64,000 bases of DNA from Bilabrum cf. latius (taxonomy: Eukaryota): the NCBI GenBank assembly GCA_965178125.1, contig OZ237756.1:1-64000 (forward strand), read 5' to 3'. The translations under genes were made by a program, and so were the position numbers. A model generated the notes under the pieces. That model worked only from the letters and a program-made list of their open reading frames with translations. It had not been told where the DNA came from and made no database searches. Positions 4,686-64,000 of the stretch are shown one piece after another; within the stretch, counting starts at the first letter, position 1; each line of letters opens with the position of its first letter.

Positions 4686-5049
4686 AGCAGGGCACACCTC
4701 CTTGGCAAACCCAATTTGCACGACGCGGTTTGGTCCAGACTCGCCGGGTGGGCGTCCATCCCGTGCAGCCCCCTGGGTGCTCGTCACCCACGGGCCGCAC
4801 CACCGAGGAGACCGAGGCCGAGATTCATTGCAAACCAAGCAGACAATCATAATCATACACCAAATATGCATTGCTAATCACTTGCACCTCTTGTCGACTG
4901 CTTGCATCTCTGCAACTGGCCCAGATCTGCCTCAGTGCGATCTTGCGACCACTTGGACACTGCGCGGCAACACCGTCTATGCGGAACATGATACTTTTTG
5001 CGGAACATGATACTTTCGCGGCGCCCGGGCCTGGCCTAGGATGGTACTG
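4686..5049 (+). mobile_element. Telomere-associated repeated unit, copy 2 (5'-truncated, flanked on both sides by telomeric repeats)
   Basis: About 98.6% identical to 4027-4390, with the same 3' junction to the telomeric array. Confidence 0.6.
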
Positions 5050-5577
5050 TAACCCTAACCCTAACCCTAACCCTAACCCTAACCCTAACCCTAACCCTAA
5101 CCCTAACCCTAACCCTAACCCTAACCCTAACCCTAACCCTAACCCTAACCCTAACCCTAACCCTAACCCTAACCCTAACCCTAACCCTAACCCTAACCCT
5201 AACCCTAACCCTAACCCTAACCCTAACCCTAACCCTAACCCTAACCCTAACCCTAACCCTAACCCTAACCCTAACCCTAACCCTAACCCTAACCCTAACC
5301 CTAACCCTAACCCTAACCCTAACCCTAACCCTAACCCTAACCCTAACCCTAACCCTAACCCTAACCCTAACCCTAACCCTAACCCTAACCCTAACCCTAA
5401 CCCTAACCCTAACCCTAACCCTAACCCTAACCCTAACCCTAACCCTAACCCTAACCCTAACCCTAACCCTAACCCTAACCCTAACCCTAACCCTAACCCT
5501 AACCCTAACCCTAACCCTAACCCTAACCCTAACCCTAACCCTAACCCTAACCCTAACCCTAACCCTAACCCTAACCC
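5050..5577 (+). repeat. Interstitial telomeric array (TAACCC)88
   Basis: 528 bp of perfect repeat, reverse complement of TTAGGG. Confidence 0.98.
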
Positions 5578-5582
5578 CTTAA

Positions 5583-5799
5583 CCGCTTGGAGGGTGCGAT
5601 GGATAGCCGTGCTGGCTAGGGCTATGCAGTGGTTGGGAGCCGCTTGGAGGGTGCGATGGATGGCCATGCTGGCTAGGGCTATGCAGTGGTTGGGAGCCGC
5701 TTGGAGGGTGCGATGGATGGCCATGCTGGCTAGGGCTATGCAGTGGTTGGGAGCCGCTTGGAGGGTGCGATGGATGGCCATGCTGGCTAAGGCTATGCA
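5583..5799. repeat. 57-bp minisatellite, ~3.8 copies (subtelomere-like)
   Basis: Unit CCGCTTGGAGGGTGCGATGGAT...GGTTGGGAG starts at 5583, 5640, 5697 and 5754. Confidence 0.95.
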
Positions 5800-5894
5800 T
5801 TATTTTGCAGTGCAAAAGCTCTGAGTATTGAATAACGCATACTTTCACAGGGCACTCAGCAGCCACGGGGCGCGAATGCTACCGTGGTCCAAGT

Positions 5895-6819
5895 TCATGA
5901 TCCGCTACCGCCAGCACCCCCAGCGGCAGCTCCAGCACCTCCTGCAGCAGCTGGAGCTGCCCGCTTGGCTGCCTTGGCTTCTTCCTTGGCGACCATTTCA
6001 TCGATGAAGTCCTGCAGGGGCGCTGCCTCCTTCTCGGGCAGCAGCTCGAACTCTTGCATGAAGAAGAGCAGGTGCTTCAAGCAGGAGTTGGTCAATGGGA
6101 CTGCATCTACCTCCTCAATCTTATCCCAGTGATGATGGAATACGTGGCAATACACGCGGAAAATCCGCCTTAGGATCTTGGCAGCGGTGGACTTGAAGTC
6201 CTTCGGGAACGCCTTCTTGGAGTCCGTCACGAAAAAGTCCTCGTTCGAGATCAAAGAACCCGCCCAAGACAACAAGCGGTCAATGTATTCTCGAGCAGGT
6301 ACACGCCTAGGTTTGGGGTTCGCGTCATCTGCCCAGAAGTACTCAAAACGAGGTCCAGCCTGCGAGTGGTAACTCAATTGGCTTTGGGCAGGAGTAAGAG
6401 CAAGATTTTAGCGATAAGAAATGAACAATGTAACCCAAAATGAGCTTACAGTCATAGCTGGGAACTGCGAAACAGATGTTGGGACGAGAAGCAAGGCAAA
6501 CGAAATAGAGTGTAGTTGCCAGCGATGCATTACGAAGGCATCGTTGAAGCTCAACGGAGCTTACCTTCTCGGGTGTGACGTCATCTTCAATGATCGTGTA
6601 AATCAAGGTAACTTCGTTGAAGAAATCCGCAACATGAACCGCAAGCCACTCCTCGTAGCGCTCGCCGGGAGGCAGCTTGACTGCTTGCCTCATGTCTCCC
6701 GAGCCTAGGGTTTTCTAGACCAGGCTATGCAGGTCATATCTTTTGGTGCCCTTTTTATGGGACTTCAGAGGCTTCGACGGCTTCGATTTGCCTGCTTTAC
6801 GGCTGCGAAAAGAAATCAT
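5895..6819 (-). CDS. MOB1: MOB1/phocein-family kinase activator (3 exons: 6819-6565, 6464-6450, 6359-5895)
   Basis: Motifs TLGSGDMRQAVKLPPGE..EWLAVH..DFFN, PAMT/AGPRFEYFWAD and KILRRIFRVYCHVFHHH. GT-AG introns; one in-frame TAG (6715); TGA stop. Confidence 0.9.
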
Positions 6820-7243
6820 TGAGCAGCCAAGAAGCACCGCACCATTGAACGATACTTGTTGTAGAGCCAGTTATTGAGCCTTGGATAGATCTCACAGCGC
6901 TTCTGTTCTTTCTGATTCCATGATATTCAACGAATTTAGTTTTGTACCACTGTGTGGATTCTTATGGCCGTTGCAGCTAGTCCATCGGTTTTCCAGTCGC
7001 TCCCGAGTGCACTGCAGCCGCTGCCAGTGGCGACCACAGGCATGCAGGCTGGGCACGCAACAACCACGCGACCAGGTCGCAGCGCTGACGGTTTGAACGG
7101 TATAAAGCAACGCGATATGGTGAAAGTCACACGCAATGCTCAATTGACCAGTTCTCGAATTGAACCGGTCAAATAACAAGTACAGCCTGGCAGTCGACAA
7201 GGGCACCACGAACACACAGTCCCGGCCCGACACCCCGCCCTCC

Positions 7244-10200
7244 TTACAGATCTGCACCGCTGCCAGCAAGGGGTGTGTCATCAGTATTTGTTCCCAATGA
7301 CCCAGATGCTGCATTCAGATCAGCCCCCTAGGATACCCTGGCAGTGCCAGGGATCCTGATCCGCTCTACACCTTGTCCCTGTCCCTGACCCTGACCCTAG
7401 CCCTGCCCCCCAGCCCCTGACTACGCCTGATCCTGCTCCAGCAAGGCGGCCCCGTCGTGCGTACTCTCTTCCACTAATTGACTAACTTCGCTAAGGATGG
7501 GTCTCCGGGCCACCGCTGGGGGCGAAGAGGAACCCACCATGGACCCATCAGGCGGAGATGCAGAAGCTGTACTCGCCGACAGAGTCCCACCCTAAGTTCC
7601 GTGCCCAGCTGCCTGCACGCGCAACAGCCGGGCAGAATTGACTCGCGGGATGTGGCGCGGCCCTTGCACGCCCCCCCTCGGTGCCCTTCCACCCACACCG
7701 ACACCGCTCGCCGCCAGCTCAGCCACCCGGCCCACGGAGCTACCGGGCAGTTGTCCGCTAGGAGATCGGCCTGTGCTTCCGTCTACAGCGAGCGCGTTGG
7801 GGGACTACGGGACCGGGCTACTGCTCCTCCCAGCCTCGGCCTCGCTGCCCACAGACGCAGACCTGGCTGGGTCCCTGGCTTCCCCGATCATGCTGACTGT
7901 AGCCCGCCGCATCTCCCTGGTCCGCAGCAACCGGTCCATGGCATGCTTGGGCACACGCACCAGGACGGACCCACGGGAGAACCGAAGCGGCTCGTCCGAC
8001 GGGTGGATCGTGTGGAAAGCAGGCACCCGCAGGCGCCTGCCACCGGCCCGTAGCAGCGCCCCACGCATGAGGATGCACGTGTCCTCCTCCAATAGCACCC
8101 ATCCACGGTGCCCATAGCCTATGCTTCGGCCCATGGAGTCCCCAGCGCCCACAGCCGCAGCCTCCGAACCCCCAACGGAGGCCTTTGAATCCTCGAAGGA
8201 AACCTGCAGCGGGTTTGACACGGATTCTCCGACCGCTTGGCCTGGCCTGTGCCCCGCTGCTCCCTCGCGCCCCCTCGACTGCATCGCTTCTATCTCAGGC
8301 TCGGACAGACCCAGGAACTGCCTAGAGGACCCGGACAGCAGCTCGTTTGCAGAGGGTACGGGCCCATGCATGGCCTCGTCGACATCCTTGCGCTGCAGCA
8401 CAGGCACCTGCACGGTGCTCGGGGGCAGCAGCGTGGAAGCCACCAGCGGGTCGCAGCCCAGCCCGCCCCAGGATCCGTTGTGCTCTTGCTCGCCCGATGC
8501 CGCGCCAGTACCCTCATTGCTGTGGCTGTCTCCCCACGGAACGATTACCGTGGCGAGCCCGAGCGCCTGCTCGATGTCGAGCCGCCTGCTCGTGGCGAAC
8601 GAGTCCAGGAATGCGTGAGCCACATGGGCTGCTGCAGATCTCCACGCAGCTAGCGTGAACACGGTAGACTCGCGCATGAGCGTGCGCACGCCGTTAATGC
8701 TCAGCCTAGCCGCACTCCCGCCCGTGGCGGAGATGGCAGACGTGGTGTGAGCGGTGCCCAGCAGCACCTCGGCCGCTCCCACGATGGAACCGGGACCCAC
8801 GCGACGAGCCGGCACTCTCTCGGCTCCAAGCTGCACCCTGAAGCTGTTCTTTTTGGTGATGCGCCGCCCTCGCCCGGACTGGCCCTGCGCGGCGGCGGCC
8901 ATCGCCTACAGCGCTAAGGGCGATGCCCGGCCCCCACCCTCACTGGACGATGCCGCCTTGATGTCCCTCGTGTCGAAACCCTTGGGGGCCGAGCCTGCCG
9001 TGCCCGCCGCGAATACCGCCACTGACCCCTCCAGCACGATGATGATCCCATCCGGATCATCCCCTTGCTTGAACAGGAACTGCTCGTTAGATAGCACAGC
9101 ATACTGCGACTGCCGGATCACGCCCGACAGAGACTCGGGGGGCAGGGCCCTCCCAGCCAGCGCTGACGTGCGCAAAATGTCGGCGAGCGATTTCTGAGGC
9201 ACAGCGGAGGGGTTCCCTGACGCCTTCTTGCAGCTGCTATTGTTGTGCTTGAGGATGAGCTCCAGCTGCTTCTCATCGATGCCGCCCTCGTGGTGCAGTT
9301 TCATGGCCAGGTGGCGCTCCTTGAACAGCAGCGCCAGGGCGGCCTGCTGCGTCTGAATTGACCGCACAACAGCAGGATACCCAGACCGCAGCCGCTCTGC
9401 CCAGTCTTCTGCGCTCTGCTACTACGTCTCGGATTCGGCCGCTATGCGATTCCCAGTGGACTCATCGATCGACCAGCTCTTCCGGGCTCGCCGCACCGCC
9501 GCCTGGCCGTGAGAGAACCCCACCGCTACATCGTATGCTGTCGCGACATACCCGCTGATGAAACCGTCCGTCACGCAGTGCAGCCACTCGAACCTCCGCA
9601 GCAGCAACAGCCACGAGGGCAGCTCCACGAGGCTCTCAAGCGCGTCCCACTAGTGCATTGCCTCAGTGTCCGCGTGGTCCAGCTCCTCCGACTCTGCCAG
9701 CAGCAGCAGCCGCAGAGCGTCCCTGCCCAGCAAGCCGGCCTCGTGTCGGTGCCAGTATGCCGCCTTGGAAGCCGCGATGAACCGACGCCTCGTCTCGGCC
9801 GCCACCACCTCGGACCCCTGCGCCACGGGTGCACTCGAGGCGATGCTAGCCGCTTCGCGTGCGTCCACGCGCACAACCTCGCTGGACGAGGACTGCAGAG
9901 CAGCGTCCACCGCGCTGTCGAGGGCACGTGATTCACCCTCTACTAGCGTGGCTCGCCGGGCCGACAGCGCGCCGGCAGCATCGTCGTCCGCCTCCACTTC
10001 TTCCTTCTCGCCGTACAGGCACTGCCACCACCAGCTCTCCCGCCGCTGCTTGTCGGCGACTTGCTTGGCAGTCGCCGGGTCATACCGAGCTAGGTACCGG
10101 CCCCAGCGAGCTGACACCCGCTGGGGTGCCTGCGAGGCATCCGTGCCTGGTACCCGCCCCTTGCTGATCCTGTCAAAGTACGAGCTGCGCGAGTACACGG

Positions 10201-11795
10201 GGATGTAGCTCCAGACCGCGTTCCAGTCCGCCATGGCGAACTCGTCCCTACCGGTGAGCTCCGTGGCGCTGTCGCCCGTCGCCGAGTTGATCAGGTCACT
10301 GGCGTGCTCAAACATGCGGCGCTGCACTGGCGACTCTTTGCCGAGCCCCAGCTGCCCCAGCAGCAGCTTGGTGGTGGACCCATTGATGAGCAGCGTGAGG
10401 AATGCGATGCCCGCCACATAGAAGAGCACCCTCTCGCGGAGGGTCACCTCGATGTTCTCGTCCTGCTCCACGATCAGGCCAAGGCTGAGTCCAACTGCCC
10501 CGCGCAGACCTGCGTACGACAGCACGATGGCGCTCCGCCAGTCCAGCGGGTATCCCGACCACGCTAGCACCGGATAGCAAACGAGCACGCAAGCAATGCG
10601 CACCGCGTGCAACGCAATGTACAGCACGATGAGGTAAAGGAACTCGGTACCTCCTACGTACGAGGAGAAGAGCGCCTTCTCCGCGATGATGAGGCCCGAC
10701 AGGAGGAAGATCACCGTGTTGGCCAGGTACCCCAGCATCTCCCAGAACGAGTGCATCGTGTGCTCCACCTCGGGACTGACCCGCGTCTTGGCGTACCCGG
10801 ACATCAGCACGCCCAGCGTCACCACCGCCAGCACGCCGGAGGTTTCAAGCGCCGTCCCCTCTGCCACTGCAAAAGCCGTGTAGCACCCCACGACTGTCAT
10901 GGTCACTTCAGAGATGGCGTCGTTGTACACGTAGCCGAGCAGCAAAGTGATGGCGATCGCGCACACGGCGCCCCAGATTGGACCAACCGCGGCCAGCTGA
11001 ATGCCCATCCCCACCATGGCCCCCGGACTGGACTCGATGGTCTCCGTCAGGATGCCCCTTACAAGGGAGAAGAGCACGATTGCACTGCCATCGTTCAGCA
11101 AGCTCTCGCCCTCGATTAGCGTCTCCAGCGGCTTTGAGGCGCCTAGCTCTTTGAGCAAAGCAACAACTGCCACTGGGTCTGTGGCAGCCAGAATAGAGCC
11201 TAGCATAAGGTGCGCTGTGAACGTCCAGTCGTACTGCTGGAAGAGCGAGTTCGTCACTGCGGCAGTCAGCAGCGTGCCCAGCACCATCCCCGGCACTGCA
11301 AGCGCAAGGATCTGCCAGAAGGACTTTCTGAACACGTGAAAGTCTACGGAAAAAGCACTTTCAAAGATGAGGGTGGGGAGGAACACGAATAGAATGACAT
11401 GTGGGTCTACATTGGCCCATCCCTCCAGGATTCCTCGCAGCTGCACGCCCTCCTCCGGCAAAAACTGGTCCAAAGTTCCAAGCAAAACTCCAAGGACCAA
11501 TAGAAGTACCTGCGCTAGCCTATAATCGCGCTAGGATACTTAGTGGTGCAAGCGCCGATGGGAGAGGTGCGGCACGCGCCGCGCGCGCATGGCATTTGTG
11601 TGCGGCCACGGACCGTGAATGGTACCGGCAACAACTTACCGTGTATGGTGCCGGAAAGGGAAGAAACTGAGGGAGAATGTTCCTGCAGAGCAAACCCAAT
11701 AGCAGCGTGATACACACGAAAATCGCCGCATCTGCAACTGCCTCATGACCTGGTTCCTCCGGGCCAACGGGCTCTGGGGGACTCTCTCCTATCAT
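7244..11795 (-). CDS. CPA1 Na+/H+ antiporter, SOS1/NHX7-like, with a C-terminal cyclic-nucleotide-binding-like domain (~1470 aa; intron 11639-11510)
   Basis: Motifs FLPTLIFESAF, ATDPVAVVALLKELG, IEGESLLNDG, AGLRGAVGLSL and FLFKQGDDPDGIIIVLEGSV. Nine in-frame TAGs; stop TAA 7244-7246. Confidence 0.9.
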
Positions 11796-12005
11796 GACAG
11801 ACTAAACGAGTATGGTGTATTTCAACAACGCAGACAAAGGCTACTTGTTGACTCTTGTGCGCCCGTCTAGCTTGGGTTGTCTTGCGTCACGGAAATCAGT
11901 GCCGATGAATCAACACCTTACAAACAATGAAGCAGCAGAAGGCTCCTTGCGGCATTATTAGCTTCAACGAGCCAATATTTCGCTGGTATTGGGGATAGAT
12001 CGATC

Positions 12006-13414
12006 ATGAAACTTGCAAGCTTTGATGCTTTTCAAAAAATTCGTGCTGGTTCCGCTCCATTTGTGGCGGACCGAACTTTATGCGGTGCGACGAGTAAGTT
12101 TTACGTTGTTTCTGTTCAAAGCATCGTTGTTTCCGGTGATGCAGCAGCGCTGAAAATCAGGTGGCTAAATTTCTGTCAACCGCAGTTACGCTGGTGACTG
12201 GAGTCGTCATGGTGCTCATATTGCTACAGGAGGTCAGGTTGTATTTGACAGTAGACTACGAAGATGAGGTGCACGTAGATTCAACTCATGCGGAAGAGGA
12301 CATGTCTGTGCGATTGGACATGACCTTCTTCCACCTGAAATGCGATGGTGAGGCTCGAAGTCGTTGCAGCAGTCAGCATGTCTCTCTTCCTGTACATGCT
12401 GTCGCATTTTTAGCACAACCGTTATCGACTAGCAATTGTATCGCAGACGTAGAGTTTGAGATTTAGGATAGCAAGGGATAGTTGTATCCTCCCGGAGCTG
12501 CCCGTCTGACCAAAGCCAGCGTGCGAGACGCCGACCGCCAGCTGGCCACCGCCGTTGCCATGCACAGGCAGCTTCTGGCGGCGCACGGCAAGCGGCAAGG
12601 GTGGAGCCTAGGGTCAATGCTAGGGTTTGGCGGCAGAGCGGTAGGACCCGGTGATAGCGACGACGAGTACGGTGACGACCCGGACGCCGACGTGGCTGGC
12701 ATCGTGAATCCCTCCCGGCTGGCGCAGGCGATGAACATCGCCAGGCAGCACTCGAGCGGGTAGGGCTCGGGCAGTGCGGGACAGGGCAGCAATGGCAGAC
12801 CGGAGCTAAGCAGAGATGGGTGCAGGGTGCACGGCGGGCTGCGGCTCAAGAAAGCAGCGGGCAATTTCCACGTGGTGCCGCGCCCCTTCAGCGCCAGGGG
12901 GTCCACTGGCTTCTTCCGGGGCATGCCGGTGGACGAGCTGCTGTTGTACAACGCGTCACACGTGGTGCACGACCTGGCGTTTGGCCCTGCCTTCCGCGGG
13001 CAGGAGAGCCCCCTCCGCGGTGTGGTGCGCGCCCACGAGGAGGGCCCCGCGCAGTTCCAGTACTACGTGACCGTCGTGCCCACGCTCGTGTCGGGGGGGC
13101 GGGCCTCGCTGGCGGCCTGGGTGGGCTCCTGGATCGGGCTGGGGGGCAGCGAGGCACTGGCGCTCAGGAGCGCGCAGTACTCGGCCACAGAGTTCACGGC
13201 GGCGACTGACCCCACCTCGGTTATGATGTCACCCCCAGGGGTCATCTTCCGATTCGATTTCTCTCCCGTCATGGTCATGCGGAAGGAGCGGTCGAGGACG
13301 ATGGCGCAGCTCCTCACCTCTGTGTGCGCCATCCTCGGTGGCGTGTTTGCAGTGAGCGGGATGCTGGACGGGGCAATTCACAGGGCGGGGAGACTCTTCA
13401 AGAAAGCGGATTGA
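12006..13414 (+). CDS. ER-Golgi intermediate compartment protein (ERGIC3/Erv46/Erv41 family); introns 12094-12185 and 12348-12446
   Basis: Motifs LASFDAFQK, RTLCGA, GCRVHGGLRLKKAAGNFH, FQYYVTVVPT, PGVIFRFDFSP and LTSVCAILGGVFAV. TAGs at 12464, 12479 and 12761; TGA stop. Confidence 0.9.
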
Positions 13415-13597
13415 AGCGATAGTTTAGATTGCATCATTGGTAAGATGGCGTCAAAGCACACAGCCTCTGGGTGCGGTTTATCTCCCAAACCGGAAGCGAT
13501 CACTGCCTCTGGGTGCGGTTTGCGACCAGATAGTCCTCGGTCCTCAGGGTGGTTGTGAGGCCATTCGTAGCAACAGTTGCACACATAGTTTGTGTAC

Positions 13598-18030: not shown

Positions 18031-18113
18031 TGACTTGTGACCCCGTCGAACTTGAGCTCACGTTGTTTGCGGCATCATGATTTCGGCATCAATAGTCAGT
18101 ACTCGGAGCCAAA

Positions 18114-40618: not shown

Positions 40619-40870
40619 TGGGATGGGCTATGACAAGCATGCTGTGGCCTTGCCTGGCCGGCAAAAATCTCAGTACGGGCGGGTCTGTGTATATTCCACA
40701 GCCCCTTCCACCAGCTTCCGCCAGCACATCTGCAAGTAGGTACGCAGTGGCCTCCACTGGTCGCATCTACAACACCAGGCGAGTGTGCGATAAATGAATG
40801 TCAGCCAGATGAATGCGATACTTGTGAAGATGAATGCAATAAATTAACGTCGGCGAGACACATTGGCGCG

Positions 40871-42310
40871 ATGGCCTCAGACGACAAGTTAGATACATTG
40901 CTTGGTGAGCTGAATATTGCTCCGGACAGTCATATGCCACCACCGGGAAACGGAGATGCGTTGTTGACACACGTGCTGCCAACCATGGAGCCTTCCTTGG
41001 CGAATATCATCAACAAGAAAAGCTTACGCTGGGTATTCGTAGGGGGAAAAGGGGGTGTAGGGAAAACTACAACGTCTTGCTCTCTAGCAGCCGAGCTGGC
41101 TCGGCACAGGGCAAAAGTGCTTGTCATTTCGACGGACCCAGCGCACAACTTGTCGGATGCGTTCGACTAGAAGTTCGGAAGGACTCCAACTCTCGTGCAT
41201 GGCTTTAGCAATCTATATTGCATGGAAATCGACCCCAAAGCAAGCATGCGGGATCGGTCAGCGGCGATGGAAGCGCAAGTCAAAGCAGCGCAGGGCCAGC
41301 AAGGGCAACAAGGGGGCATAGCGGGTTTCTTGGGCGGGATGGGCCTTGGTTCCATTGCCAAAGACATAGGTGAGGCTATTCCTGGAATTGATGAAGCGCT
41401 TGCGTTCGGTGAACTGCTGAAGAGCGTGGTTGAGATGGAGCACGAAGTGATCGTTTTCGACACAGCTCCAACCGGGCACACGCTCAGGATGCTGCAGTTT
41501 CCAGACATGATTCGCAAGGCCACGGGGATCATAGATAAGATGAAGCAATCAATGGGTGGTCTGTTCTCAATGGCCGCTAGCATGATGGGAGGCGCAGGCG
41601 GTCCAGGGGGAGGTGGCATGGGTGGGCTCATGGGCCAGCTGGGCGAGATGCAGGGCGTCGTGGACCGTGTGAGCCAGCAGTTCAAGGACCAGGCTCTCAC
41701 TACATTCGTGGCGGTGTGCATCCCTGAGTTTCTATCCGTGTACGAGACAGAGCGGCTCGTGCAGGAGCTGGGCAAGCAGCAGATCGACTGCCGCAACATC
41801 GTGGTGAACCAGTGCCTGTACGTTGAGGGTAGGCACCTGGACACTGCAAGGAAGGCCATGCTTGAGGCAGGGGCGGACTAGAGAGAAGGGGCATCTGTAG
41901 TGGAGCTGGTGCGTGCCCGCCGGCGCATGCAGGCCTCGTATCTGTCCCAGATCGACGAGCTGTACCCCGCCATGCACGTGTGCAAGATGCCGCTTATGCT
42001 GGGAGAGGTCAGGGGGGCGGCGAGGCTCAGGGCCTTCGGGGAACAACTTGGCAGGCCGCACCCGGGCCCCGGACCAGTGCAGGAGGATGAGAGGGAAGAG
42101 GTTGAGGGCTTGTCGGCGGGGGCATCGGGTGGAGCAGCGGTGGGTGGGGCGTCTTCAGGTGCGGGTGCGGGTGTGGGTGTGGGCGGCTGGAAGGGCGGAG
42201 ACGGGTCGTTGCTCGCGGATGTGCGAGAGGCCATGGGAGATTGGGGGAGGGGGGGTGGGGACGGAGGCAGTGATCCTGGGGGCGACGGTGACGACATCGA
42301 TGTCGACTGA
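40871..42310 (+). CDS. GET3: Tail-anchored protein targeting ATPase GET3/ASNA1
   Basis: Motifs [31 protein letters not shown][TAG][20 protein letters not shown] and [14 protein letters not shown]. TAGs at 41168 and 41879; TGA stop. Confidence 0.95.
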
Positions 42311-42465: not shown

Positions 42466-45400
42466 TCACACGTACAGACTTGCGGCGAACACGATGTCCC
42501 GCCTCATCTTGGCAGAGGCCCCCTTGAACTTGGCCTCTAGCGCCTCCTCCCCCACGCCCCGCGCTGCCTCGGCCAGCTGCCGCAGCAGCTCTTCCAGCCT
42601 GCGGATGACCCGGATGACACTCCCCTCGAACAGCTTGGTCAGCTTCATCACTTCTTTGAACTTTTTGCCCGCTGCCCACGCGTCCACCACCGGCATCATA
42701 TCCACCCGGAAGCTCTTCACGTATTCCTCTACGTCGATCTCGATCAACGACTCAGCGCTCACGTCACCGATCCGACGAGCCGCCTCCCGCAGCGTGCGCA
42801 CGGGTCCCGCCAGCCTGGGGGGCAGCTCCGCGTCCTCCATGGCATCCGTGGAGCTGCCCTCCCCGAACACGGCGCAGCTAAGCAGCGAGGCCACCTAACC
42901 CTCGTCCAGCTCGCTAAAGGTGCCCGAGAAGATCAGCTCCGTCACCAGGAGCTCGTCCGCCGTGTTGACCTCGCAGGCCACACGCCCCTTGAGCTGCACC
43001 ACGCCCTTGTCGTCCACGTAGTCGAGTCGTCGCAGCACGCGCTTCATCTTGCGGAGGGTGTCGCGCATCACGAGCGCCTTGGAGGAACGGATCTGCCTCT
43101 CTAGGAACCTCGTCTGCTCCACCAGCGCGTCCTTACGCTTCAGGGCAGCCACCCGCTCCCGCCGGTCTGCCTTGCTCCAGTGCATCGCGGCACAGTCCCG
43201 CAGCTGCCCCTCCACCCCGGCAGCTTCCTCATACACGGCCTCGAAGGCGGGCTCTCCCCCCAGCCCGAGGTCCTTCCTGGGATCTAGCAGCGGAGGAGCT
43301 CCGTCGAACCGCCGCAGCACCTCAGTCAGCTTCTCGCCCACCTATGTGAGTTCCTTGCCCGGCTTACCCCCCTTGCCCTCGGCCAGCCCTGCCTTGCCCC
43401 CCGTCAGATACACCCGCACCTTGCTCAGGGCCTCCACCGCTGACAGCAGAACGGGGAGCACACGGGGGCGGCCCTCGCCCGCCCGGGCCGCCTTCTTGCT
43501 GCAGGGCTGCGGCGCGCCTTCCCCGCGCCTGGCCTTGCCCTCTTCCTCGGTCCCATCCACAGTGCCTGCCCCCAGCTTGGCGGCCAGGTGTCTCGAGTCG
43601 TCCATCGTGAGCAGCACCGCCTTGACCACCACATCGCTCGCAGGCAGGTCGGCCAGGGAGACATCTCCGCCGCCCCCACCGGCCTTATTCCCACCCTTGC
43701 CCTTGTTCTTCTTGTCTTTCTTCCTCTTCTTCTTGTCCTTCTTGCTGGACTAGCCAGTGGCAGCGCCAGCACCCGCCCCACTTCCCCCGGCCCCCTCTAC
43801 CTCGCCCTCTCCCATGGCCAAGCGCCGCTCCCTCTCCCGCAAGAAGGCCCCCTCTCTGGCTTCTACCTCGCTGACAACGCCCCAGCCCCAGTCCGTCGCC
43901 CCGTCACGCACACGCACCAGCCGGCCTGGGGCAAGGAACCGCACCGTCCTGCTGGGCTGCATGGCCATGTCCCTCATGAGCCCCCTTTTGTCCTCCAGCC
44001 TCTCGCAAAGCATGTGGAAATGGCGGGTCTCGCTCTCCTCCTGCACCTCGACCTCGCCCGCCTCCTTGTGCTTGACTGCCAGCGCTCTCTCCATCTCGGG
44101 GACAGCTCGCTCGTTCTGGAACTGGTGGAAGGACTACTGCATGATGGACTCCGGATCCACTCCCGCTGCCTCCACCCGCATGAGGTTCAGCAGCATGTTG
44201 TAACTCAGGTGGAAGCTCGAATCCAGGGGGTCTGCCTGCCCCCTCAGGATCTCCTTGGCGCCCTCGGGCTCCATCGCCTCGTCCACCATCTGGATCACAA
44301 TCCCGCGGTCGTCGAGCCCTCTCCGCCCGGCCCTTCCGGACATCTGAATGTACTCACCGGGCCGGATCAGACGGAAGGAGTTGCCGTCGAACTTGCGGAG
44401 GCCTGTGAAGATGACCGTCTTGGCCGGCATGTTGACGCCCATGGCGAACGTCTCCGTGGCGAAGAGGATCTTCACGAGGGACTCCTGGAACAAAATCTCC
44501 ACGACCTCCTTCAGAATGGGCAGCAGACCGCCGTGGTGGATGCCCACGCCTCGCTTCAGCAGCGGCAGCAGCGCCTCGATCTGAGGCAGCGCCCGATCGT
44601 CCTCGGACAGCGCCGAGATGGCCGCCTTGAAGACCCTCTCTGTGAGCTGTTTCTCCTCGTCCGTGGTAAAGTCCAGCCGGGCCAGCTGCAGGGCGTATTT
44701 CTCGCAGTCTCGCTTGCTGAAGCTGAACACAATCACGGGGTCATAGCCTCGTTGCATCACCATGCGGATCAATCGCTGCAGGTCAGGGGTGCCGTTCTTG
44801 CCGCCCTGCGGCTTGCGTTTGCGCTTGCGGCCCCCCGCCCCCTCTGATGCCTCCACGGCGTCCTCGATGGCGCTCGTCTTGAGCCGAGCCATGGCCTGCT
44901 CGAAGTTGTCCGACCGGAAGCGGCCCTTCTCGTCCACTACCAGGTACACGCCCTCGCCGCCCGCGGGGAATATAAAGTGCTGCAGCGGCGTCGGCCTGTA
45001 GTCCGTGTATACCACGTGGCACGTGTGGTGGTGCAGGTGCCGCGTCCATGCCGCGAACTCCTTGGCGTTGGGGATGGTGGCCGACAGGAACACGAACCGG
45101 ACCGTGTCTGGCAGCATGATGATGGATTCCTCCCAGACCACGCCCCTCTCCTTGTCCCTCATGTAGTGGATCTCGTCGAAGATGACCCACTTGACCGCCT
45201 TGATCACCTCGCTGCCCCGGTACAGCATTGACCGCAGGATCTCGGTCGTCATCACCAGGCATGCCGCCTGGGGAGCAATCGTCACATCACCTGTCATGAG
45301 ACCCACGTCCTTGAACTCCTCCACCATTTCCCTGTACTTTTGGTTGCTCAGCGCCTTGATGGGGCTCGTGTAGATGACCCGCTACCCGTCCCGCAGCGCC

Positions 45401-45960
45401 ATGGCGATCGCGTACTCGGCCACCACCGTCTTGCCCGCGCTCGTGTGCGCCGACACCATGACGCTCTCATTGCGTTCTAAGCACGCGATGCTTCGCCGCT
45501 AGAAAGGGTCCAGAGAAAACGGGTACTTCCTCGCTGGGTTGTCGGGGAGGCGGTCGTCTAGCGCGGTCGTCTTGCCCTCGTCTACATCGCCTTTTGACAA
45601 CGCGGAGGCGCCCGATGTACCGGCCTCATCTGCATCCGTGGATGTTGTTGAACCGATGGCTACAGCTGTCGATGATGCCGCGGACGAGGAGGATGAAGAG
45701 GACGAAGCCATCGCCGGTTGTCCCCCTTCGCCTGCTCCGGACGCTGGCCCAGAGGCAGGCAGGGCAGGAGGCCGAGCCGCATCTCTCAACTCGTCGTCCT
45801 CGATGACTTTTGACACTTGCTCAACACTATCTGTACTGTTCTGTTCGCCATCTTCTGTTTTCCGCTTCTTCGCAGCCGAACCAGTAGTGGCACCTTCAGC
45901 CAATGAAGTGAGGCCATCTTCAGTCGGCTTTTCATCGAACACATCGAACAAATCATCCAT
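42466..45960 (-). CDS. MTR4: Exosome-associated RNA helicase MTR4 (SKIV2L2)
   Basis: Motifs YPFSLDPF[TAG], [47 protein letters not shown] and [11 protein letters not shown]. Six TAGs; TGA stop. Confidence 0.96.
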
Positions 45961-46160
45961 AGCACGAAATGTATTGAAGAAGCAGCTGCTCGAAGCTGCA
46001 AGCTATAAATTGTGCGTACTTGCAGTTCCTCCCTGTCCCCATTCGCAGAGCAGTGCCCTGCAAAAGCGACGTGTGCAAAAGCAACAAACCGTATGGGCGA
46101 TGTACTAAGCAACCATTGAAGAATTTGCAATGAAGGAATGAAAATCAAAAGAGTGTTAGC

Positions 46161-47732: not shown

Positions 47733-50700
47733 ATGTCCAGCTTCCGATCGCATATCACTGGAATCACTGCAGGCTATGGTGACGTGAGTTGAGCCTGGAA
47801 ACTCTCGGCTCAGGATACGGCTCCTGACCCTTTTTGTTTTGGCACGACGTATCCACTTTTTTCTCAGCGCTAGACAATGGCGCAGGTCAATGCTGTTTGC
47901 TCTACCAATTCATTATTATGTTGTGCATATTCCGACGGTCTGGTCGGTGCGTTCTTGAGACGGTCTGGGGATCAGCTGCTGAGTTTTAGGCCATTCGCAA
48001 CCGCACCTCTTGAATGGGAGGCGGCAGCCGCGACGACGGTGTCTGATAGAGATCATGTGTATTCAATGCAAGGAGCATTTTGGACAAAGGGTGCATGGTC
48101 ATCCCATCGGTCTGCGGCACTCTGCCAGCCGCATCCAGCTGCCTCGGTCGCCTGCCTCGCGGTGGATCCGACCGGGAGTCTCGTTGCTTCGTGCTGCTCG
48201 GACGGCAGAGTTGCGATACACCGCCTAGAGACCAGAAAACGACGTGCAAGCACTACCCCCGCCCCTTCGATCCCTTCTGAGGCGAGGGCGGTGCTGGTGG
48301 CTGCCCACTGGCTGCACAGGGGCGAGCAGCCTGCCCTCCCACCTGCCCACGAGGAGCACGACTCGGAGCACGAGCAGGACGGGCGCAGCGCACCGCCACC
48401 CCTTCCCTCATCGGCCATGTCACCCCAAGTCAGACACGGCCACCGGGTTCATGCTTGCTGCTGGGCCCCGGATGGAAGCGCGCTGTACACGGTGGGCGCC
48501 AGGGGATGTGTGGCCCAGTTGAGGGTGCGGGCTCAAGGGGGTATGCCGGAGCGGCCGCTGCCAAGTGCTTCCGTGCTGGTCCCAGCCGGCCAAGGGGATA
48601 CCACGGTATGGACGCGTGGCTTGGTGCACGGCATTGCGGTGCTGCCTCCCGCCGCAGCCGCTAGTTGCAGCGAGGCTGAGGAAGCCGTGGATGCAGCTGC
48701 CGATAGTAGTGGCAGTCACGCACAGTCTGGGACATAGGCTGGCTCCGGGGGGCTGGTATTGGCTGCAGGGCTGTCACTGAGCACGCAGTTGGTGCAGGCA
48801 GAGCTGGATCGCAGGCGGGGTGCTGTGTTGGAAGGGCGGAAGAGAGGCGGAAAAGAGCAGGACGAGGAGGGGGTGGCGGCTGCAGGCACACCATTACCGT
48901 TATTGAAGAGTGCAGCAGACGCTTTCGCAGACTCTCCCACGCCAGCTGCCGAGGCAGACAGGCGCGCTCTGTTGCTTCGGTCTCTGCCGCGGGATCGACT
49001 GGAGGGGTTGCTTGCGAGACTAGGGGGTTAGTTGGGTGTGACGGGCATGGGAAAAGACGTGCAGCCTCCGCCACGACTGTTTATTCACAGATCGGACGGC
49101 ATCGGCATGAGGGTGGACCCCGGTCTGGTGCACCCCTCTCGGTGCGCGGCTACTAGACCGGGACAGGGACGCGGGGGACTCGCCCCGAGGTGGATGCCGC
49201 CACCGGTGGATGCCTGTGTGGCGGGGATGGTGCGGGGGCCAGCAAGGGACGGGCCAGGGCACGGTTCGCTCTCTGTGCTGCGGCCCCACCCTGCAGTGGC
49301 GGTGCACCGGCTGCCTGGTGCTGGTGGGAGCGGGCGGAGGCATGTGCATGGGCATGGGCATGGGCATTGGGTAGCGAGCGTGGCCAGTCCAGAGGTTTGG
49401 GTCGCAGCGGCCTGTCAAGCGGCCAGGGAGGCAATCAACCGACCGATGACAGGTGAACTAAAACCCAAAGCGCGCACATCGGCAGGACCAGTGGCAGATC
49501 CGATGGAGGCCGCTGCTGCTTCATTGACCGACTGGTTTGCGGTATGGCGGCCCGTGGGACACATTGCTGGGAGGACCCCGCTGGTAGTGGGCGGAGAGAG
49601 GGGCAGCACGATCAAGGTGCCGCCAGGGGTGGAACTGTCTCACGTACTGCCGTCCGTGCAGCCAACTGTGCAGGGCAGGCGATTCGCAGTCCCACGGCAG
49701 CCAAGCTGGCGTGTTGCTACCCTCGAGGCACCCAGCCTGTGGACTTCTGTCGACCGCGCCAGTGACCATGAGCATGACTGTGCTGCTGGACCAGCACATG
49801 GACCAGCACCCAGTGGCTTAGTGCCCGCGGTGTCACCTGCTAGTATGCCAGTTTTGTGCTGTGCTCTCAATGCCTCCGATCTTGCGGGGAGCACGGACAG
49901 CATGCAGGCCCTTCTCGGGGCTCCGGGCGGCGCTGCATTGTCGTTGGGTGCGCATGCTGGCCACACGGTTGTTGCCGATGTGACTGGGGGCTTGTCTGTA
50001 TCCACTCTCTCGATTGCTAGTGATGCAGCAGCGGCAGCAGCGAATGGATTGAGCGACTCAACCGACCCCGCTTGGCCCGTCCTTGCCTCCGGACCTGACC
50101 TGCTTGCGGCATGTGCTGTGGACAAGGGCATCACAGTCCCAGGGGATCGAGCCCCGCTGGGGGCCGCGGTCGCTCTGCAGCAGTTTAGGTCTTCGCGCGC
50201 TCTTGTGGGCATCCTGCCCGTGCCCAGTGTTCCAGAGGAGGTGTTGCTGCTAGTGCGCGGGACCAGTATGCTGGGTAAAGGCGCATTGCGCGGGCATGCG
50301 AGTGGTGGGGAGCACCAGCGAGGGGCCTGGGCCGCTGTGTCTCTTCGGGTGCATTCGATACAGGGGCTCGCCCGCCGGCTGGAGGTGGAGGCATTTTCGA
50401 TGCACTCGTCCACAGTGAAGGGGATCATGAAGGAACAAGGCGGGGGCAGCGGGGCGGAGGCCGGGTCTGTCGTTCGTCGTGCTGCGCTCGAGGCAGCGGC
50501 AGGGAAGGCGTGGGCTGCTCTGGAGGCGGTCGGGGCAATGAGTGACGACGGGAATCCGATTGTTGGGGCGGGCGGTCTGGAGCTGCTGCGGGCAGCAGGG
50601 CGAGCTCTGGCTCGGGCCATGCTTGTGGCAGGTGTGCTAGAGGTGGAGGACACACGGTGTGCTGGCGAGGCCGGCGCGAGGCATCCTCTGGCTGTCCTGC

Positions 50701-52382
50701 TGCGTGGACCGACAGCGATGCAGCATAAAGGAGCCAAGGGGAGGAGCTCGAGTGCTTCTATGGGCCTGGGTATTCCTGCCATGCTTCGGAGGGCAAGCAG
50801 CGGGAGGGAGGATGCGGACGGAGGTGCTGAGGCTGGTGCTGGGGCTGGTGCTGGGGCTGGTGCTGGGGCATCCGCGAGTACAATCAGGTCAAGTGGTGGG
50901 CCAATGGAGGGCGGTGGGGGCTGCAGCTGGCTCACTGTGCCGTCCATCAGTCTAAGCGCGGCCCACGAGAAGGCCAGCAGTTCGAGCTCACCAGCAGGAG
51001 GTGATCAAACAGTTCATTAGCCTGGCCATGACTTCGAACCCGCTGGTCGAGATGCCCCCGATGTCGTGCAGTTTACCATCGAGCAGGTGCGATCCGCTGC
51101 CATGGAGTTAGGCCCTGCGCTAGGGGTGCTGGCCGGTGGGGCACACGCAGGGGACGAGTCTTCTGACGATGAGGTGATGAGGCTGCTGGGGGCATGTCGC
51201 CTGCCGGATGGGAAGGTAGGCCTGCTTCACGGTCCAGGAAACAATAGGAGAGTGCTATCCTGGAGTGACGGAGCGGGGGCTGTCCTGGATCTGGACCATG
51301 CCGGCGGAGCAGATGGCCATGGACGCTGGCTGGGAGCCGGCTGGGTGGACGAGGTGCAGCAGGCCCGCAGCGTGCTTGCTGGTGCAGGGGTGGGCGCGGG
51401 CAAGGGCACGCGGGGCGGAGGTGCTGTGCTGACCGCACTAATGGATGCATCTCGGCTGCTGGCCCTCCGCTTCCAGCGAGTGGGGCAATCCGCTGCTCCT
51501 GTCGGTGATCCTGCCGGTGCTGCGCCTGGAGGGTAGCGGGCCGAGGCCGACAGCCCCGAGGCGATCGCAGCAGCGTGCAAGCGCACGGCCCTGTAGGGCG
51601 CCAGTCCCGCTGCAGTGATTGCCGTGCGGCGCGCAATTCACGACGCTGACGAGCCCGCGGGTGCAGCGAGGAGCGTGATCGATGCACTGCGGTCAGGCGG
51701 CCTCGGGGCCGAGCTGCCGGTTCCACTGGGAGGAGGCAGCGAGGATGTGAGTAGGGGAGGCGGGGTGAGCGTGCAGCAAGCGCTCAAAGACGCGGAGAGA
51801 GATGTGACTTGTGTATCTGGGGCTGTGTTCAAGGGGGCTGGGTGCGGCGTACCGCTGCTGAGGGCGGTGGAGGACGCGCTGACAGGGGCCTTAACAGCAC
51901 GCGGAGGAGGATAGGGCGAGTGGGCGGGCTCAGCTGATGCCGCGCGTAGCATCGTATGCGCCGCGAGCCGCACTTCTATGGGCGCAGACGCCTTCTTTGC
52001 CGCAAGAGCGCTGCTGGGAGGCGGAGTGCACCTGACACCCAGGACTTCCAGCGACAATGACGGTGCATCAGGGGATGGTATGCCAACAGCTCCTGTGGAT
52101 ATCCGCGTGGAGTGGTCCACTGCCGCGAGAGAAGAGTTAGGCCCAGGTGCTGTGCGAGTTTCCATGCAGGCGGACACCGGATTCGACGTGTTCACACGCA
52201 AGCAGATGCAAGTCGCCATGGAGGGCGAAGAGGGGCTGGAGCAGCTCCAGCCTCGGTTGAGAATGCGCGTATGGGTACGGGAGGAAAGGGACTTGCAAGT
52301 GCTGGGCAGGGGTGGGGGCGAGGGCGAGGGGTCGGTACCCTCCCGCAGAGTTCGAACCCTTCGTTTTTAGATCGCGGAGTGA
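47733..52382 (+). CDS. Large protein with N-terminal WD40-like repeats (~1520 aa; probable intron 47784-47867)
   Basis: WD-like segments VACLAVDPTGSLVASCCSDGRVAIH and VHACCWAPDGSALYTVG. Six same-frame ORFs joined by TAGs (8 in total); TGA 52380-52382. Confidence 0.7.
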
Positions 52383-59832: not shown

Positions 59833-62800
59833 TCACTCGTCCTCTAGTTCGTCTTCAGTCCCATCATCTAGATCATCGTCGCCATCATCCAGATCGTTGA
59901 AGTCATCTGCCACCAGCGGATCGACTTGGCCTTCCCCCGTCGATTCCATTTCGGCAAGGTCTGCGCCCCTCGCACGGCCGTGGCCACCCACACCCACCCT
60001 GATTCCTAGCTCCTGCTCGACCCCGTACTCCTCCACTTCCCCCCAGGGCTTGTTGTCCTTCTAACCAGCACCATCCGGTGCACCACTCGCCGCCGTCGAG
60101 TCCTGTCCCCGGCCCGCCTCTGCCTCGCTGGCAGCCGCCTCAGCCTCTGCCTCTGCCCGGGGCCATAGCCCCGCCCCCCTCAGGACGCCCTCGCCTTCCC
60201 CAGACAGCACCAGCCCCAAGATCCCGTCACTGGGGGGCCCAACGGACCCCACCTCGGGGAGCAGCGGACGCACAGCCGCCCGCACATCCGCTGGTCCAGG
60301 GGCGACGGGGAACTCCCTCTCCGGTGCCGGCCGGTAGCACGCACAGCAGGCCCCCAGCCATCGGGCGCTCACCACGCGCGTACTTGCAGAGCGCACCGCA
60401 GAGAGTGCCTTGCTCGTGCCGGGGCGACCCACTGCCACGTGAGTCATGAGGTGGAACGGATTGGGGGCATGCACATGACCTGAAGCAGCAGGGACTGCAG
60501 GAGCAGACCCAGCTACCCCCACCTCGCTACTGCCCTAGCCCTTGCTCTTGTCTTTCCTCTCGGCTTCAGCGTGATCTTGCCCCTATCCTTGCTATGGGCT
60601 CTACCCTCCTTGGAGGTTGACCAATACCGGAACCCCGTCCTGCTGCTGTACTGTGAATCCCTTGGGCAGCGAAGGCACAGGCAGGGTGTAGGGACATGGG
60701 GTGCCCGGCAGCTGACTCATCCCTGCACCGGTCGATGCTGCTGCTGCATCTGCATCTGCAGCTGCAGGTGCCGGCACAGTGCCTGTGAGCATGGGGGGGG
60801 CTGGTGCTCGCAGGACCCTTGCCCCCATGGTGGAGAGGTGCTTGGCCAGGGGGTCGTGCAAGGGATCCACGCCCAGAGGGAATACGCCGGTGGTTGCAAC
60901 CACCACGCCTCGCATGGCGACTCGGAGTCGCAGGGGCAGCAGCAGCTTGGTGTCCCGCCACACGTCTGGCACTGCTCGCGGCATCGCGGCTGCGGTTGCT
61001 GCTGGCTCTGGCGCATCGGCCGGCGGGGAGTCGTCGTGGCCTGACACTGATCCAGCCGTGGATGCGATCGAGGAGGAGGAGGATGATGACGACGACGAGG
61101 CACCCCCTTCACTACGACGAGTGCTGCTGGTGCCGTCGCCGTGCAGTGCAACAGATGATGCGGGCAGCGTCCGTACAACATGCCTGTGCCCCTGCCCCTG
61201 CCCTTGCCCCTGCTTATCCAGCCCTGGTTCCACCCACACGTGCTGATGCCAGGCAAGAAACGAGACCCACTCGGGAGCCCGAAGCACCGTGGGGCACAGC
61301 TCAGCCGACACGTCCAGGCTAGATCCACCAGCCCAGGCCGCCGGCTGTTTTCCTCCTGGTGCCTCCGTCCAGCGCCATGGGGTGGACCCTGCCTTGGATC
61401 GAGCGAGAGCGAGCACAGCCTCTCTAGTGACTGGCCCTGCGGCGCCGTGCGACCCGCCTGCCCCACTGGAAGAGGCGGCTGCCTGTCGGAACTGCTTGGT
61501 CTGGAGGTCCTGTGGCCCATCGATACTAGTCGGTGCAGATGGGGGCGATGCAGGTGCAGGCACCGGCGCAGGCGCGGGTCTCGCTCTCTTGCGGCGGATG
61601 AGAGAGGACCCCGTGCCCTTGGCGCCACCCGGGGATTGGGAACCGATGCTGCTCCCGCTTGGGCTTGATACACTGGTACTGGCACTGGTGCTGCTGGTGC
61701 TGGCTTTAGCTGCGACATCTGAATCGCTCGACAGTGTACTGGGTCTGCTGGCATCGTGCGTTTCCTACTGACTCGCTGTAGCACTTAGCATGGATTCCGT
61801 TGGAGGCCCGTCGCTCGCCATGCTGGACTCTGCGCGCTAGTCCACCCGTCTTCTCTTGGAAGCGGGCGCTTCCTGATCCACCGCACTGAGTGGGCCTGTC
61901 GATTGCCCTTGTCCTTCCTGATCCACCGCACTGAGTGGGCCTGTCGATTGCCCTTGTCCTTGCCCTGCCCCAGCTGCCTCAACCACGTTGCCCCCAATGC
62001 ACGTGTCAAGAAAGCCGCGGCTCGGCAGCCCGCCCCTCCACTCCCAGCATACCTCCCCCCGCTACTGAAGGGCGCCGACTTCGCGCGGACTGCCATGCCA
62101 GGCCTCGTCATCCCCCACGGGCAAAGGCAGGGACCCGGGTGCAAACCGCATGGCCCGTGCTACACCCAGCGATGCACCTGCACTGGCACCCGCACCCATG
62201 CTCTGCTCAGCAGGCAGCAGCACCTCCTGCCCCGGCTTAGACAGTCCGTAGTAGGCAGCGTGCACGTCCTCCAACACGTCGAGAGCATCTGCTAGAGCCA
62301 GCCTGGGCTCCTCTTGCACGTCCACGCTGCCCGCTCCCGCTCCCGCTCCCGGTCCTCTGGGGGCACCTCCCGCGGCGAAGGCCTGCTGCCCGGGGGCGTT
62401 GTTCACGTCCCTGAACCCCCGGAAGAACACGTACCTGGCGATGACTAGGAGGTTCCGCGCCCCTCCCCACACCGCCTCCGTGTCGTCGAGGATGACCGTC
62501 ATGGAATCGTCCTGGCGGTGCGAGTGCAGCCAGGCCTGGCTCTTGCTGCTGCCGTCCCCGCCCTCGTTGTCCGACCGAGATATGATGCGGTGCCCGAACA
62601 GCTTCCTCTCTGGGTCGAGCAGCCGCGCGATCGCGTCCGCGTAATCCCTCGTGCCCGCCGTGTTGATGCCCAGCTCGAAGCGGCGGGAGGCGCGCCGCAG
62701 GAAGGCCCGCACGCCCGGCCGCAGCTTCACGAAGTACGTGCCCCCACCGAACTGAACTATGTGCACGGGGCACCGAGGCACGCCCAGCGCCCTCGGGTCT

Positions 62801-63759
62801 GCAGTGGCGTGCAGCAGCGTGTGGTCGATGTCCAGCACGAGCCTGAGCTTGCGGCGGGCCCTCAGCCGCTGGCTCGCCGCCTCATCGGAGGCCCGCGCCA
62901 CGCGAGAGGAAAGAACAAGTTCATGGCCTCCTCTGGCCCGCAGCTTGAGCGTGCCTGCGGCCCCGCGCTGGCCCGCTCCACTTGCCCCAGCGGTTGCTGA
63001 TGCTTCTCGCGTACGTGCCGGTGCTCCTCCAGCCGCTTCCAGGGCCCGCTGCAGCGCATCAGCCGTTTCCAGCCGATCCCAGGGGTCTTTGCCAACTTCA
63101 TTCAAAGGACAACTGCGATGATGCCACCGGGATTCGTGCAGGCGCCAAATCGGGCCCCAATCGCGTGATTTGCTGGCAGCCGTTGACAGCGACCGCAGCT
63201 CGGGTTCGCTCGCATTTCTCCGAGTTGCCAAGTCCCAGGTCGTTAGCTCCTAAAGCTGAACCGCGGAATCTCTTACTAAATGAAATGTTCCCGGTGATGG
63301 TAGCTCGGAATCTACTTTACGGAGAGCCGCCATGTTCTAGCCGCACGATACGCATGCTCCCTTGAACTCACCGGGGTGAGAACACTCGGCTACCACAGCT
63401 AACCGTATGAATGCACCCATATTTTCATGCACTCCGGGCCTGTTTGATACTATGGGCACCCATGCCGGGCACTTCAATGGGACGCATGCTTTGGACTCGG
63501 GCACGAGCCAGGCAAGCAGCATGCCATCGACCGGGCTTCGAACCACAACCTTGTGTACTTCGCTATCAGGGGCGCTAGATGATGCCGCAGCCGCACTTGG
63601 GGAGGCTAGTGGCTACATCCACTTGATCTTGGCAAGGATATCGCCCCGCTTGACGACATCTTGCTGCTGTTTGATGGCCTTTACGTGGACGACTGGATCA
63701 GTGCTGCCGTGAGACACCTGCCGAAATCCGGCGCACACAACAGACACTATGTCATCCAT
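59833..63759 (-). CDS. FCP1: RNA polymerase II CTD phosphatase FCP1/CTDP1-like (~1308 aa)
   Basis: Motifs CSHPGEFKGACVSCG[TAG], LRLVLDIDHTLLH (DxDxT), VKLRPGV, LFGHRIISR and ILDDTEAVW. BRCT-like MRGVVVATTGVFP...THVAVGRPGTSK..VVSARWL. Eleven TAGs; TGA stop. Confidence 0.9.
61871..61960. repeat. Exact 45-bp tandem duplication within the FCP1 linker
   Basis: TCCTGATCCACCGCACTGAGTGGGCCTGTCGATTGCCCTTGTCCT x2, frame-preserving. Confidence 0.92.
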
Positions 63760-64000
63760 GCACGAAGATGTAATATATATGAAAACAAAATAGGAAACAG
63801 GATGATTCGAATGTACGGCCAGAGTGCGGTAGGAAAGCCTTAAAAAGCTCCGACGGTGTGACCGTAAATTGCACTGCACTGCCACGCCGCGACTCGCCGC
63901 AAAGCATACGCGTCCTGCACCACAACAACAATCAACGACTAGCATGGCCAGCGAATCCAAATCAACTGAAACAGAAGACCGACCCGCACTCTCCGGTTTG

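Follow-up and report, generated by a model that had tools for sequence, protein, structure and literature searches.

The 64,000 nucleotides analysed here (the window; positions 1 to 64,000 of contig OZ237756.1, assembly GCA_965178125.1) very probably belong to an organism in which UAG stands for glutamine across the nuclear genes, with UGA, the main stop, and UAA still terminating translation. Reassignment of UAG alone to glutamine is of the type listed as NCBI table 15. An initial annotation of this DNA had proposed that TAG is a synonymous Gln codon and not a site of leaky readthrough, and this proposal is borne out mainly by transcripts, homology and relatives.

The window has a G+C content of 61.6%, and long frames lie densely on both of its strands, open only when TAG does not count as a stop. 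Seven frames exceed 1200 codons if TAA and TGA alone are taken as stops. The frames encode ordinary eukaryotic proteins, including a Na+/H+ exchanger with a cNMP-binding domain, the MTR4/DOB1 helicase, a DEAD-box helicase, GET3/ArsA, a carnitine acyltransferase, an endoplasmic reticulum (ER) vesicle protein (ERV/ERGIC), MOB1 and a NIF-domain phosphatase; spliceosomal introns are present and few. Codons were counted in 19 long open reading frames (ORFs) trimmed to the first ATG (16,355 codons), which contain 99 TAG, 545 CAG and 118 CAA. TAG thus amounts to 99 of 762 putative Gln codons (~13%) and to ~0.6% of all codons, with a maximum of 15 in one gene.

For the gene of the Na+/H+ exchanger (the antiporter), the DNA can be compared with spliced transcripts. 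Its features are as follows.

7244..11795, minus strand: coding sequence of the Na+/H+ exchanger with cNMP-binding domain, with the ATG at 11795-11793, an intron at 11636-11507 and a TAA stop at 7246-7244.
7101..11865, minus strand: antiporter transcript contig (record 7 of sequencing run X5, 4635 nt), with one 130-nt GT..AG intron.
9650..9652, minus strand: in-frame TAG, Gln in protein P0148 of a 97% identical relative and CAG in L001, a metagenome contig described below.
9416..9424, minus strand: TAG TAG CAG, between the exchanger and cNMP-binding domains, aligned to CAG CAG AAG in L001.
7328..8908, minus strand: other antiporter TAGs, with first bases 8908, 7807, 7594, 7423 and 7330, in poorly conserved C-terminal sequence.

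In the genome, the antiporter frame (7244..11539, minus strand) has 1431 codons with 10 TAG, and its product matches the Pfam families Na_H_Exchanger (PF00999, 1.5e-51) and cNMP_binding (PF00027, 3e-07). Counted from its first Met, the spliced message encodes 1473 amino acids and has 9 TAG in frame, between a 5' untranslated region (UTR) of 70 nt and a 3'UTR of 143 nt. The stretch 7000-11700 is covered by X1-X4 (four runs under one organism label, share 1.00) and by X5-X7 (three runs from two other studies, X5 and X6 from one and X7 from the second; share 0.86-0.95), and contigs were compared over 5850-12100. Over this interval the DNA-like X1 contig follows the window collinearly and has no splice joints. 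Contigs from X5-X7 end at gene borders and contain joints with CT..AC ends, equivalent to GT..AG on the minus strand, at 6359->6565 (MOB1), 11506->11637 (antiporter; X5, X6 and X7) and 6802->6896 (X7 alone). Because these joints are present in X5-X7 and lacking in X1, we take X5-X7 to be transcript assemblies. X5 record 7 matches the window letter for letter over 7101..11506, with no gap, and resumes at 11637..11865, and X6 and X7 agree with the window over 7415/7488..11506. Given that the transcript contigs are gap-free and base-identical, no antiporter TAG from 9652 to 7330 is intronic or edited; all of these are in the mature message, and the TAG at 11533 is intronic. In the MOB1 contigs, 15 letters stand between the two sides of the joint 6359->6565, which fits a micro-exon of 15 nt within 6360-6564.

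Were TAG a stop, the antiporter would end at 9652, and its cNMP-binding domain (residues 817-847) would be left in a 3'UTR of 2.5 kb. Under the standard code, the TAGs in this and other genes would have to be introns, 3'UTR, codons edited in RNA to CAG, sites of leaky readthrough, pseudogene lesions or assembly errors. Introns do exist here, as the three joints and the one intronic TAG testify, yet the transcript contigs pass all nine TAGs of the antiporter message unspliced and without base differences, and the cNMP-binding domain lies downstream of three of them. Moreover, 99 TAG are spread across 19 ORFs, adjacent pairs occur in two species, the same DNA is found in independent runs, and the TAG/CAG pattern is conserved across species, so we give the standard code next to no credence. 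The initial annotation had named intronic or 3'UTR placement as its possible refutation, and this came to nothing, with the TAGs lying within the coding frame of a spliced mRNA. Programmed readthrough of stop codons takes place at single sites and with low efficiency. Continuation past UAG is common to it and to the present case, but here UAG makes up ~0.6% of codons, with up to 15 per gene, and occurs on Gln sites of catalytic motifs.

The identity of the amino acid, which is very probably glutamine, rests on homology. Two genes are most informative in this respect.

42466..46155, minus strand: MTR4/DOB1 helicase, with TAGs at 45501 and 45384 on near-invariant Gln, a TAG at 42897 on a mostly-Gln site, and a TGA end.
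41168..41170, plus strand: TAG of GET3/ArsA (gene 40634..42310), aligned to a Gln of a solved Get3 structure.

MTR4 was aligned with the 116 homologues of 900-1500 aa among proteins P0002-P0120 (P0001 and proteins of other lengths were left out). TAG219 falls on Q in all 116 homologues and TAG258 in 114 of them. TAG1087 corresponds to Q in 74/116, and the other two aligned sites are mixed (TAG674: R 52, Q 34; TAG938: A 35, Q 24); two more TAGs lie upstream of the conserved part. In human MTR4 (6ro1), the residues at the five aligned TAG sites are Q, Q, K, S and Q. In GET3, TAG179 aligns to Q of 3iqw, and a second TAG lies in an insertion. Alignments to Pfam families and to structures in the PDB extend across TAG codons.

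A comparison between species leads to the same amino acid. L001 is a metagenome contig of 11,755 nt with 53.9% G+C that is syntenic with the window, with a 676-aa protein, ERV, the antiporter and MOB1 in the same order. The first-exon boundary and first-intron position of the antiporter are common to both despite the difference in G+C (54% versus 62%), and the two antiporters share ~60% amino-acid identity. The L001 antiporter has 1406 codons that are open only with TAG as sense (13 TAG), and the longest standard-code ORF on the contig has 317 codons. Among 2604 L001 codons there are 23 TAG, 48 CAG and 21 CAA, and TAG therefore takes a larger share of Gln codons (23/92, ~25%) than in the window. 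Two TAGs in succession occur in L001 too, within its 676-aa protein.

We considered a TAG column well aligned when at least 10 of 20 flanking residues were identical, which gave 21 columns from four gene pairs. The partner of TAG is CAG in 12 of these and TAG in one. The background of Gln among well-aligned residues is 2.7%, so that pairing with Gln in TAG columns has p ~7e-16, and the frequency of Gln partners is similar for ordinary Gln residues (64 listed, with Q-Q columns counted twice). The TAG TAG of the window antiporter pairs with CAG CAG, and another such pairing is found in MOB1.

6715..6717, minus strand: MOB1 TAG, CAG in L001 with 20/20 flanking residues identical, covered by spliced contigs (exons within 5895..6870).

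The initial annotation had suggested a comparison of CAG<->TAG exchange with other changes; carried out here among relatives, it indicates that TAG is exchanged mostly with CAG, as expected of a Gln codon. TAG thus behaves between species as a Gln codon that swaps with CAG via one C/T transition. Proteins from Logan contigs of a close relative (96-97% identical) add a further comparison. P0148 (97% relative) has Gln at the window TAG 9652 and ends exactly before TAG TAG, and two more fragments of this gene are represented by P0149 and P0147. The relative's antiporter is filed in pieces of 683, 99 and 137 aa, evidently split by gene calling under the standard code.

Several observations weigh against the reading of UAG as glutamine. 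In the between-species comparison, the remaining 8 of 21 columns have other partners (A2, R2, S2, P1, G1). P0145 (96% relative), from another gene, has His opposite one window TAG, at a variable site. The K and S of human MTR4 are also at variable sites, and the TAG of the DEAD-box helicase aligns to Ala of HAS1/DDX18 at a variable, uninformative site. P0147 ends opposite a window CAA (residue 1018 of the frame 7247..11539, minus strand), as it would if the 97% relative had a TAA at a Gln site, which could be the case, or if something else had truncated the predicted gene. The RNA nature of X5-X7 is, apart from the splice joints, given only by a software guess, which labels X5 'probably DNA'; none of the runs listed for the stretch is on record as RNA. 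Neither a tRNA gene nor a gene for eRF1 is present in the 64-kb window or in L001. The statistics of TAG in repeats are also weak: among all 322 G-x-G slots TAG stands in 5 (p=0.058), and among the 36 with a neighbouring Gln codon it stands in 2, its background frequency being 0.64% (binomial p=0.022). Finally, TAG adjoins CAG or CAA in 11 of 99 cases where 8.1 are expected, which is not significant, as 383 of 2000 within-gene shuffles reach 11.

Because some TAG columns have A, R, S, P, G, H and K as partners, it could be argued that UAG encodes not Gln but Leu, Glu, Tyr, Lys or Trp, after the pattern of other reassignments of UAG or UAR. However, invariant sites always point to Gln, as in GET3 and at the two near-invariant positions of MTR4, and the between-species partners are CAG in 12 of 20 cases, with no other residue found more than twice. 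A different amino acid is therefore extremely improbable.

Coding signal was also followed across TAG independently of alignment. In a first test, codon usage was learned with one gene left out at a time and applied to stretches of 40 codons. The coding frame scored highest in 76/105 stretches after TAG, in 75/96 before TAG and in 6/19 after a terminal TGA or TAA (Fisher 0.001). In a second test, a model was trained on Pfam-supported stretches, and a triplet was counted as embedded when its own frame was the best of six on both sides. By this measure 30 of 1011 TAG, 5 of 1463 TGA and 0 of 496 TAA are embedded in coding signal (Fisher 3e-10), and one of the five TGA, at 51805, was checked and is off-frame to its gene. 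Coding signal persists past TAG and ends after TGA or TAA. Two other measures were uninformative: the next open stretch after standard-code ORFs (median 67 for TAG, 44 for TGA and 11 for TAA) did not discriminate, and the difference between GC3 and GC2 identified the coding frame only about half the time. A sliding coding scan (TAG 69, TGA 24, TAA 6) also picked up antisense frames and the ends of genes and was rejected in favour of the six-frame, two-sided test.

UGA still terminates. The window ORFs end in TGA in 17 of 19 cases, MTR4 stops with TGA after its conserved C-terminus ...AASLYV, and TGA is rarely embedded in coding signal. Tandem TGA TGA ends 3 of the 17 TGA-terminated ORFs (18028-18033, 39548-39553 and 42463-42468). 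For UAA, the window alone is suggestive, with TAA at two of 19 ORF ends and a drop in coding likelihood after both kinds of stop. In L001, three of four genes end in TAA, and the C-terminus of ERV reads ...FFKKAD followed by TAA in L001 and ...LFKKAD followed by TGA in the window. No TAA is found in frame among 2604 L001 codons or 16,355 window codons, where ~10 and ~21, respectively, would be expected from the CAA:CAG ratio; these zeros arise partly by construction, as the ORFs are delimited by TAA and TGA, yet the ORFs span full-length orthologs. Given the ERV C-termini and the absence of in-frame TAA, we conclude that TAA is a stop and that the code is UAG-only, not UAR=Gln.

In NCBI table 6 (ciliate, dasycladacean and hexamitid nuclear code), both UAA and UAG encode Gln. 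The window has UAG=Gln in common with this code, and TAA is not a sense codon here. If such a code were in use with UGA as the sole stop, in-frame TAA could be rare because the genome is GC-rich. Both TAA-terminated window ORFs do have an in-frame TGA further on (25 and 3 codons), and the CAA opposite the end of P0147 is one C-to-T change from TAA. Set against this are the same ERV junction with a TAA or a TGA in the two species, the TAA ends of most L001 genes, the missing in-frame TAA in both data sets, the 0 of 496 TAA embedded in coding signal and the drop in coding likelihood after both window TAAs. We consider a table 6 code most unlikely.

Codes in which a codon is stop or sense depending on its position are found in Condylostoma and karyorelicts. 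An ambiguous code of this kind, with UAG read as Gln inside genes and as a terminator near the mRNA end in some, is very unlikely in our estimation. When ORFs are delimited by TAA and TGA, a TAG that ended a gene close to its 3' end would be invisible, and a TAG does lie 4 codons before the TGA of 47793..52382. However, among 23 genes (19 in the window and 4 in L001), a small sample for this question, none needs a TAG stop, MTR4 and ERV reach their conserved C-termini with TGA or TAA directly after, and TAG occurs late in coding sequence, as at 7330, 28 codons before the stop.

The initial annotation had argued for Gln from repeats in which TAG takes the place of CAG or CAA. Its sites are present and in frame, and they are located as follows.

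7370..7405, minus strand: (Gln-Gly)6 tract, with TAG (7399-7397) in one of six Gln slots.
59833..63999, minus strand: frame of the NIF-domain phosphatase, open only with TAG as sense and containing the NIF domain.
60577..60605, minus strand: TAG AGC CCA TAG CAA GGA TAG GGG CAA, in the NIF-domain (CTD-phosphatase-like) protein.

The antiporter tract, CAG GGC TAG GGT CAG GGT CAG GGA CAG GGA CAA GGT (minus strand, 7405-7370), is as had been described, with its TAG in frame, and so are the run TAG TAG CAG at 9424-9416 (minus strand) and the FCP1-like site, TAG CAA GGA TAG GGG CAA, at 60594-60577 (minus strand), with an additional TAG at 60603. The alternation of TAG with CAG and CAA is therefore there to see, but as a statistical argument it is weak in 64 kb. 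Likewise, consecutive TAGs had been held against leaky readthrough. Readthrough is indeed contradicted, but the single adjacent pair in the window is close to chance expectation for 99 sense TAG among 16,355 codons. The (Gln-Gly)6 tract is absent from the L001 orthologue, and since it is not conserved there, it demonstrates an open frame and not the identity of the residue. The DEAD-box helicase and the NIF-domain protein contain Gly-Gln tracts as well, and the hexamer tract at 7371-7409 has short matches in four further X1 contigs. The hexamer (CAGGGN)n is one transition away from the telomeric unit TAGGGT, and a link between the two would be speculation.

The mechanism we envisage follows that of Iotanema spirale, by analogy. 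UAG would be decoded by a tRNA-Gln whose anticodon, CUA, differs from CUG by one base, and an eRF1 in which recognition of UAG was lost or weakened would have kept recognition of UAA and UGA. As set out in the relevant passages of Panek et al. (2017, PMC5304391), only the anticodon CUA reads UAG without UAA, and this tRNA/eRF1 route was proposed for Iotanema; the stop-recognition motifs of eRF1 are given there as GTS, NIKS and YxCxxxF, along with the residues E55, L69 and S70.

The nuclear code of Iotanema, with UAG=Gln and UAA and UGA as stops, is described in the same passages (Panek et al. 2017, PMC5304391). As in Iotanema, UAG alone would have passed to Gln here with UAA kept as a terminator, and the same mechanism might be expected. 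Unlike Iotanema, which is a metamonad, the organism studied here is apparently a bicosoecid-related stramenopile, and the lineages are unrelated. Stop preference differs as well, with UAA primary in Iotanema as far as that account goes, TGA in the window (17/19) and TAA in L001 (3/4), and our evidence comes from genomic DNA with synteny across two species. In the phyllopharyngean ciliates Hartmannula sinica and Trochilia petrani, UAG is likewise Gln, as described in the pertinent sections of McGowan et al. (2024, PMC11687900). These ciliates share with our case a widely used sense UAG and a retained UAA stop; they prefer UAA, according to the same sections, whereas the present genome is GC-rich and intron-poor, has TTAGGG-type repeats and uses mostly TGA stops. 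The cases restricted to UAG that these parts of the two papers name are Iotanema, a small number of phyllopharyngean ciliates and, with UAG=Leu, a rhizarian (PMC5304391, PMC11687900).

The chances are about even, in our judgement, that this is the first nuclear stop-codon reassignment in stramenopiles, in a bicosoecid-related clade with UAG=Gln and UAA and UGA as stops, and in at least two species (~60-80% protein identity; GC 62% and 54%). Full-text literature searches, which mostly excluded subscription journals and supplements, returned no report of nuclear UAG reassignment in any stramenopile. In the accessible portion of the Halocafeteria genome preprint, which gives a GC content of 46.8%, there is no passage on genetic code or stop codon; with 61.6% G+C in the window, Halocafeteria was rejected as the source. 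As to the source lineage, the closest named relative of the window MTR4 is that of Cafeteria, at 68% identity and likewise filed full-length, and metagenome and transcriptome proteins at 67-72% identity are filed full-length. In a single-gene FastTree of MTR4 (37 rows), the window is sister to Cafeteria (SH-like 99) inside a clade adjoining oomycetes, on long branches (0.62/0.64) and with a composition warning that includes Cafeteria. The organism may thus be a bicosoecid-related stramenopile, a placement that is tentative because of these long branches and the deviant composition of Cafeteria.

If correct, this would be a further independent case in which UAG and UAA have different meanings. 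Reassignments of UAG alone are rare, and they show that the ribosome and eRF1 can distinguish UAG from UAA, a discrimination that is relevant to the evolution and engineering of the code. The public genomic DNA and transcriptome runs would allow direct work on the tRNA and eRF1 basis, and a GC-rich, intron-poor flagellate with both DNA and RNA data would be a convenient system for studying a suppressor tRNA and changes in eRF1. Gene calling under the standard code shatters the genes, so the public protein sets available for this lineage consist of fragments and should be re-annotated with TAG=Gln. Under the new code, TTAGGG-type telomeric repeats would also become an open (Gly-Gln)n frame and may feed the Gly-Gln tracts of several proteins.

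The window contains two internal telomere-type arrays of (TAACCC)n, one at 4391-4684 (49.5 copies) and one at 5050-5577 (88 perfect copies). The same unit of 19 nt, present twice, precedes each array (4319-4357 and 4980-5016), and the second is followed by a unit of 57 nt repeated 3.8 times (5583-5799). On the minus strand, with TAG=Gln, the arrays read as (Gly-Gln)n within a frame containing 96 TAG. The X1 contig that is collinear with the window ends near 5760, and the arrays may therefore mark an assembly join.

Two further proteins lack a Pfam match. The frame 23535-27518 (minus strand) encodes 1327 aa made up mostly of two long tandem-repeat blocks with units resembling ...KAEAETKRADEA... 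and ...EASKQLREREAELAEAREEAKTAAGAQE..., and it has 9 TAG, 0 of them inside the repeat blocks. The other is the protein of 663-676 aa encoded at 13559-15589 (plus strand) and at 1328-3613 (minus strand) of L001. It has an apparent signal-peptide-like N-terminus, and a large protein search gave only two matches, one in the 96% relative and one at 36% identity.

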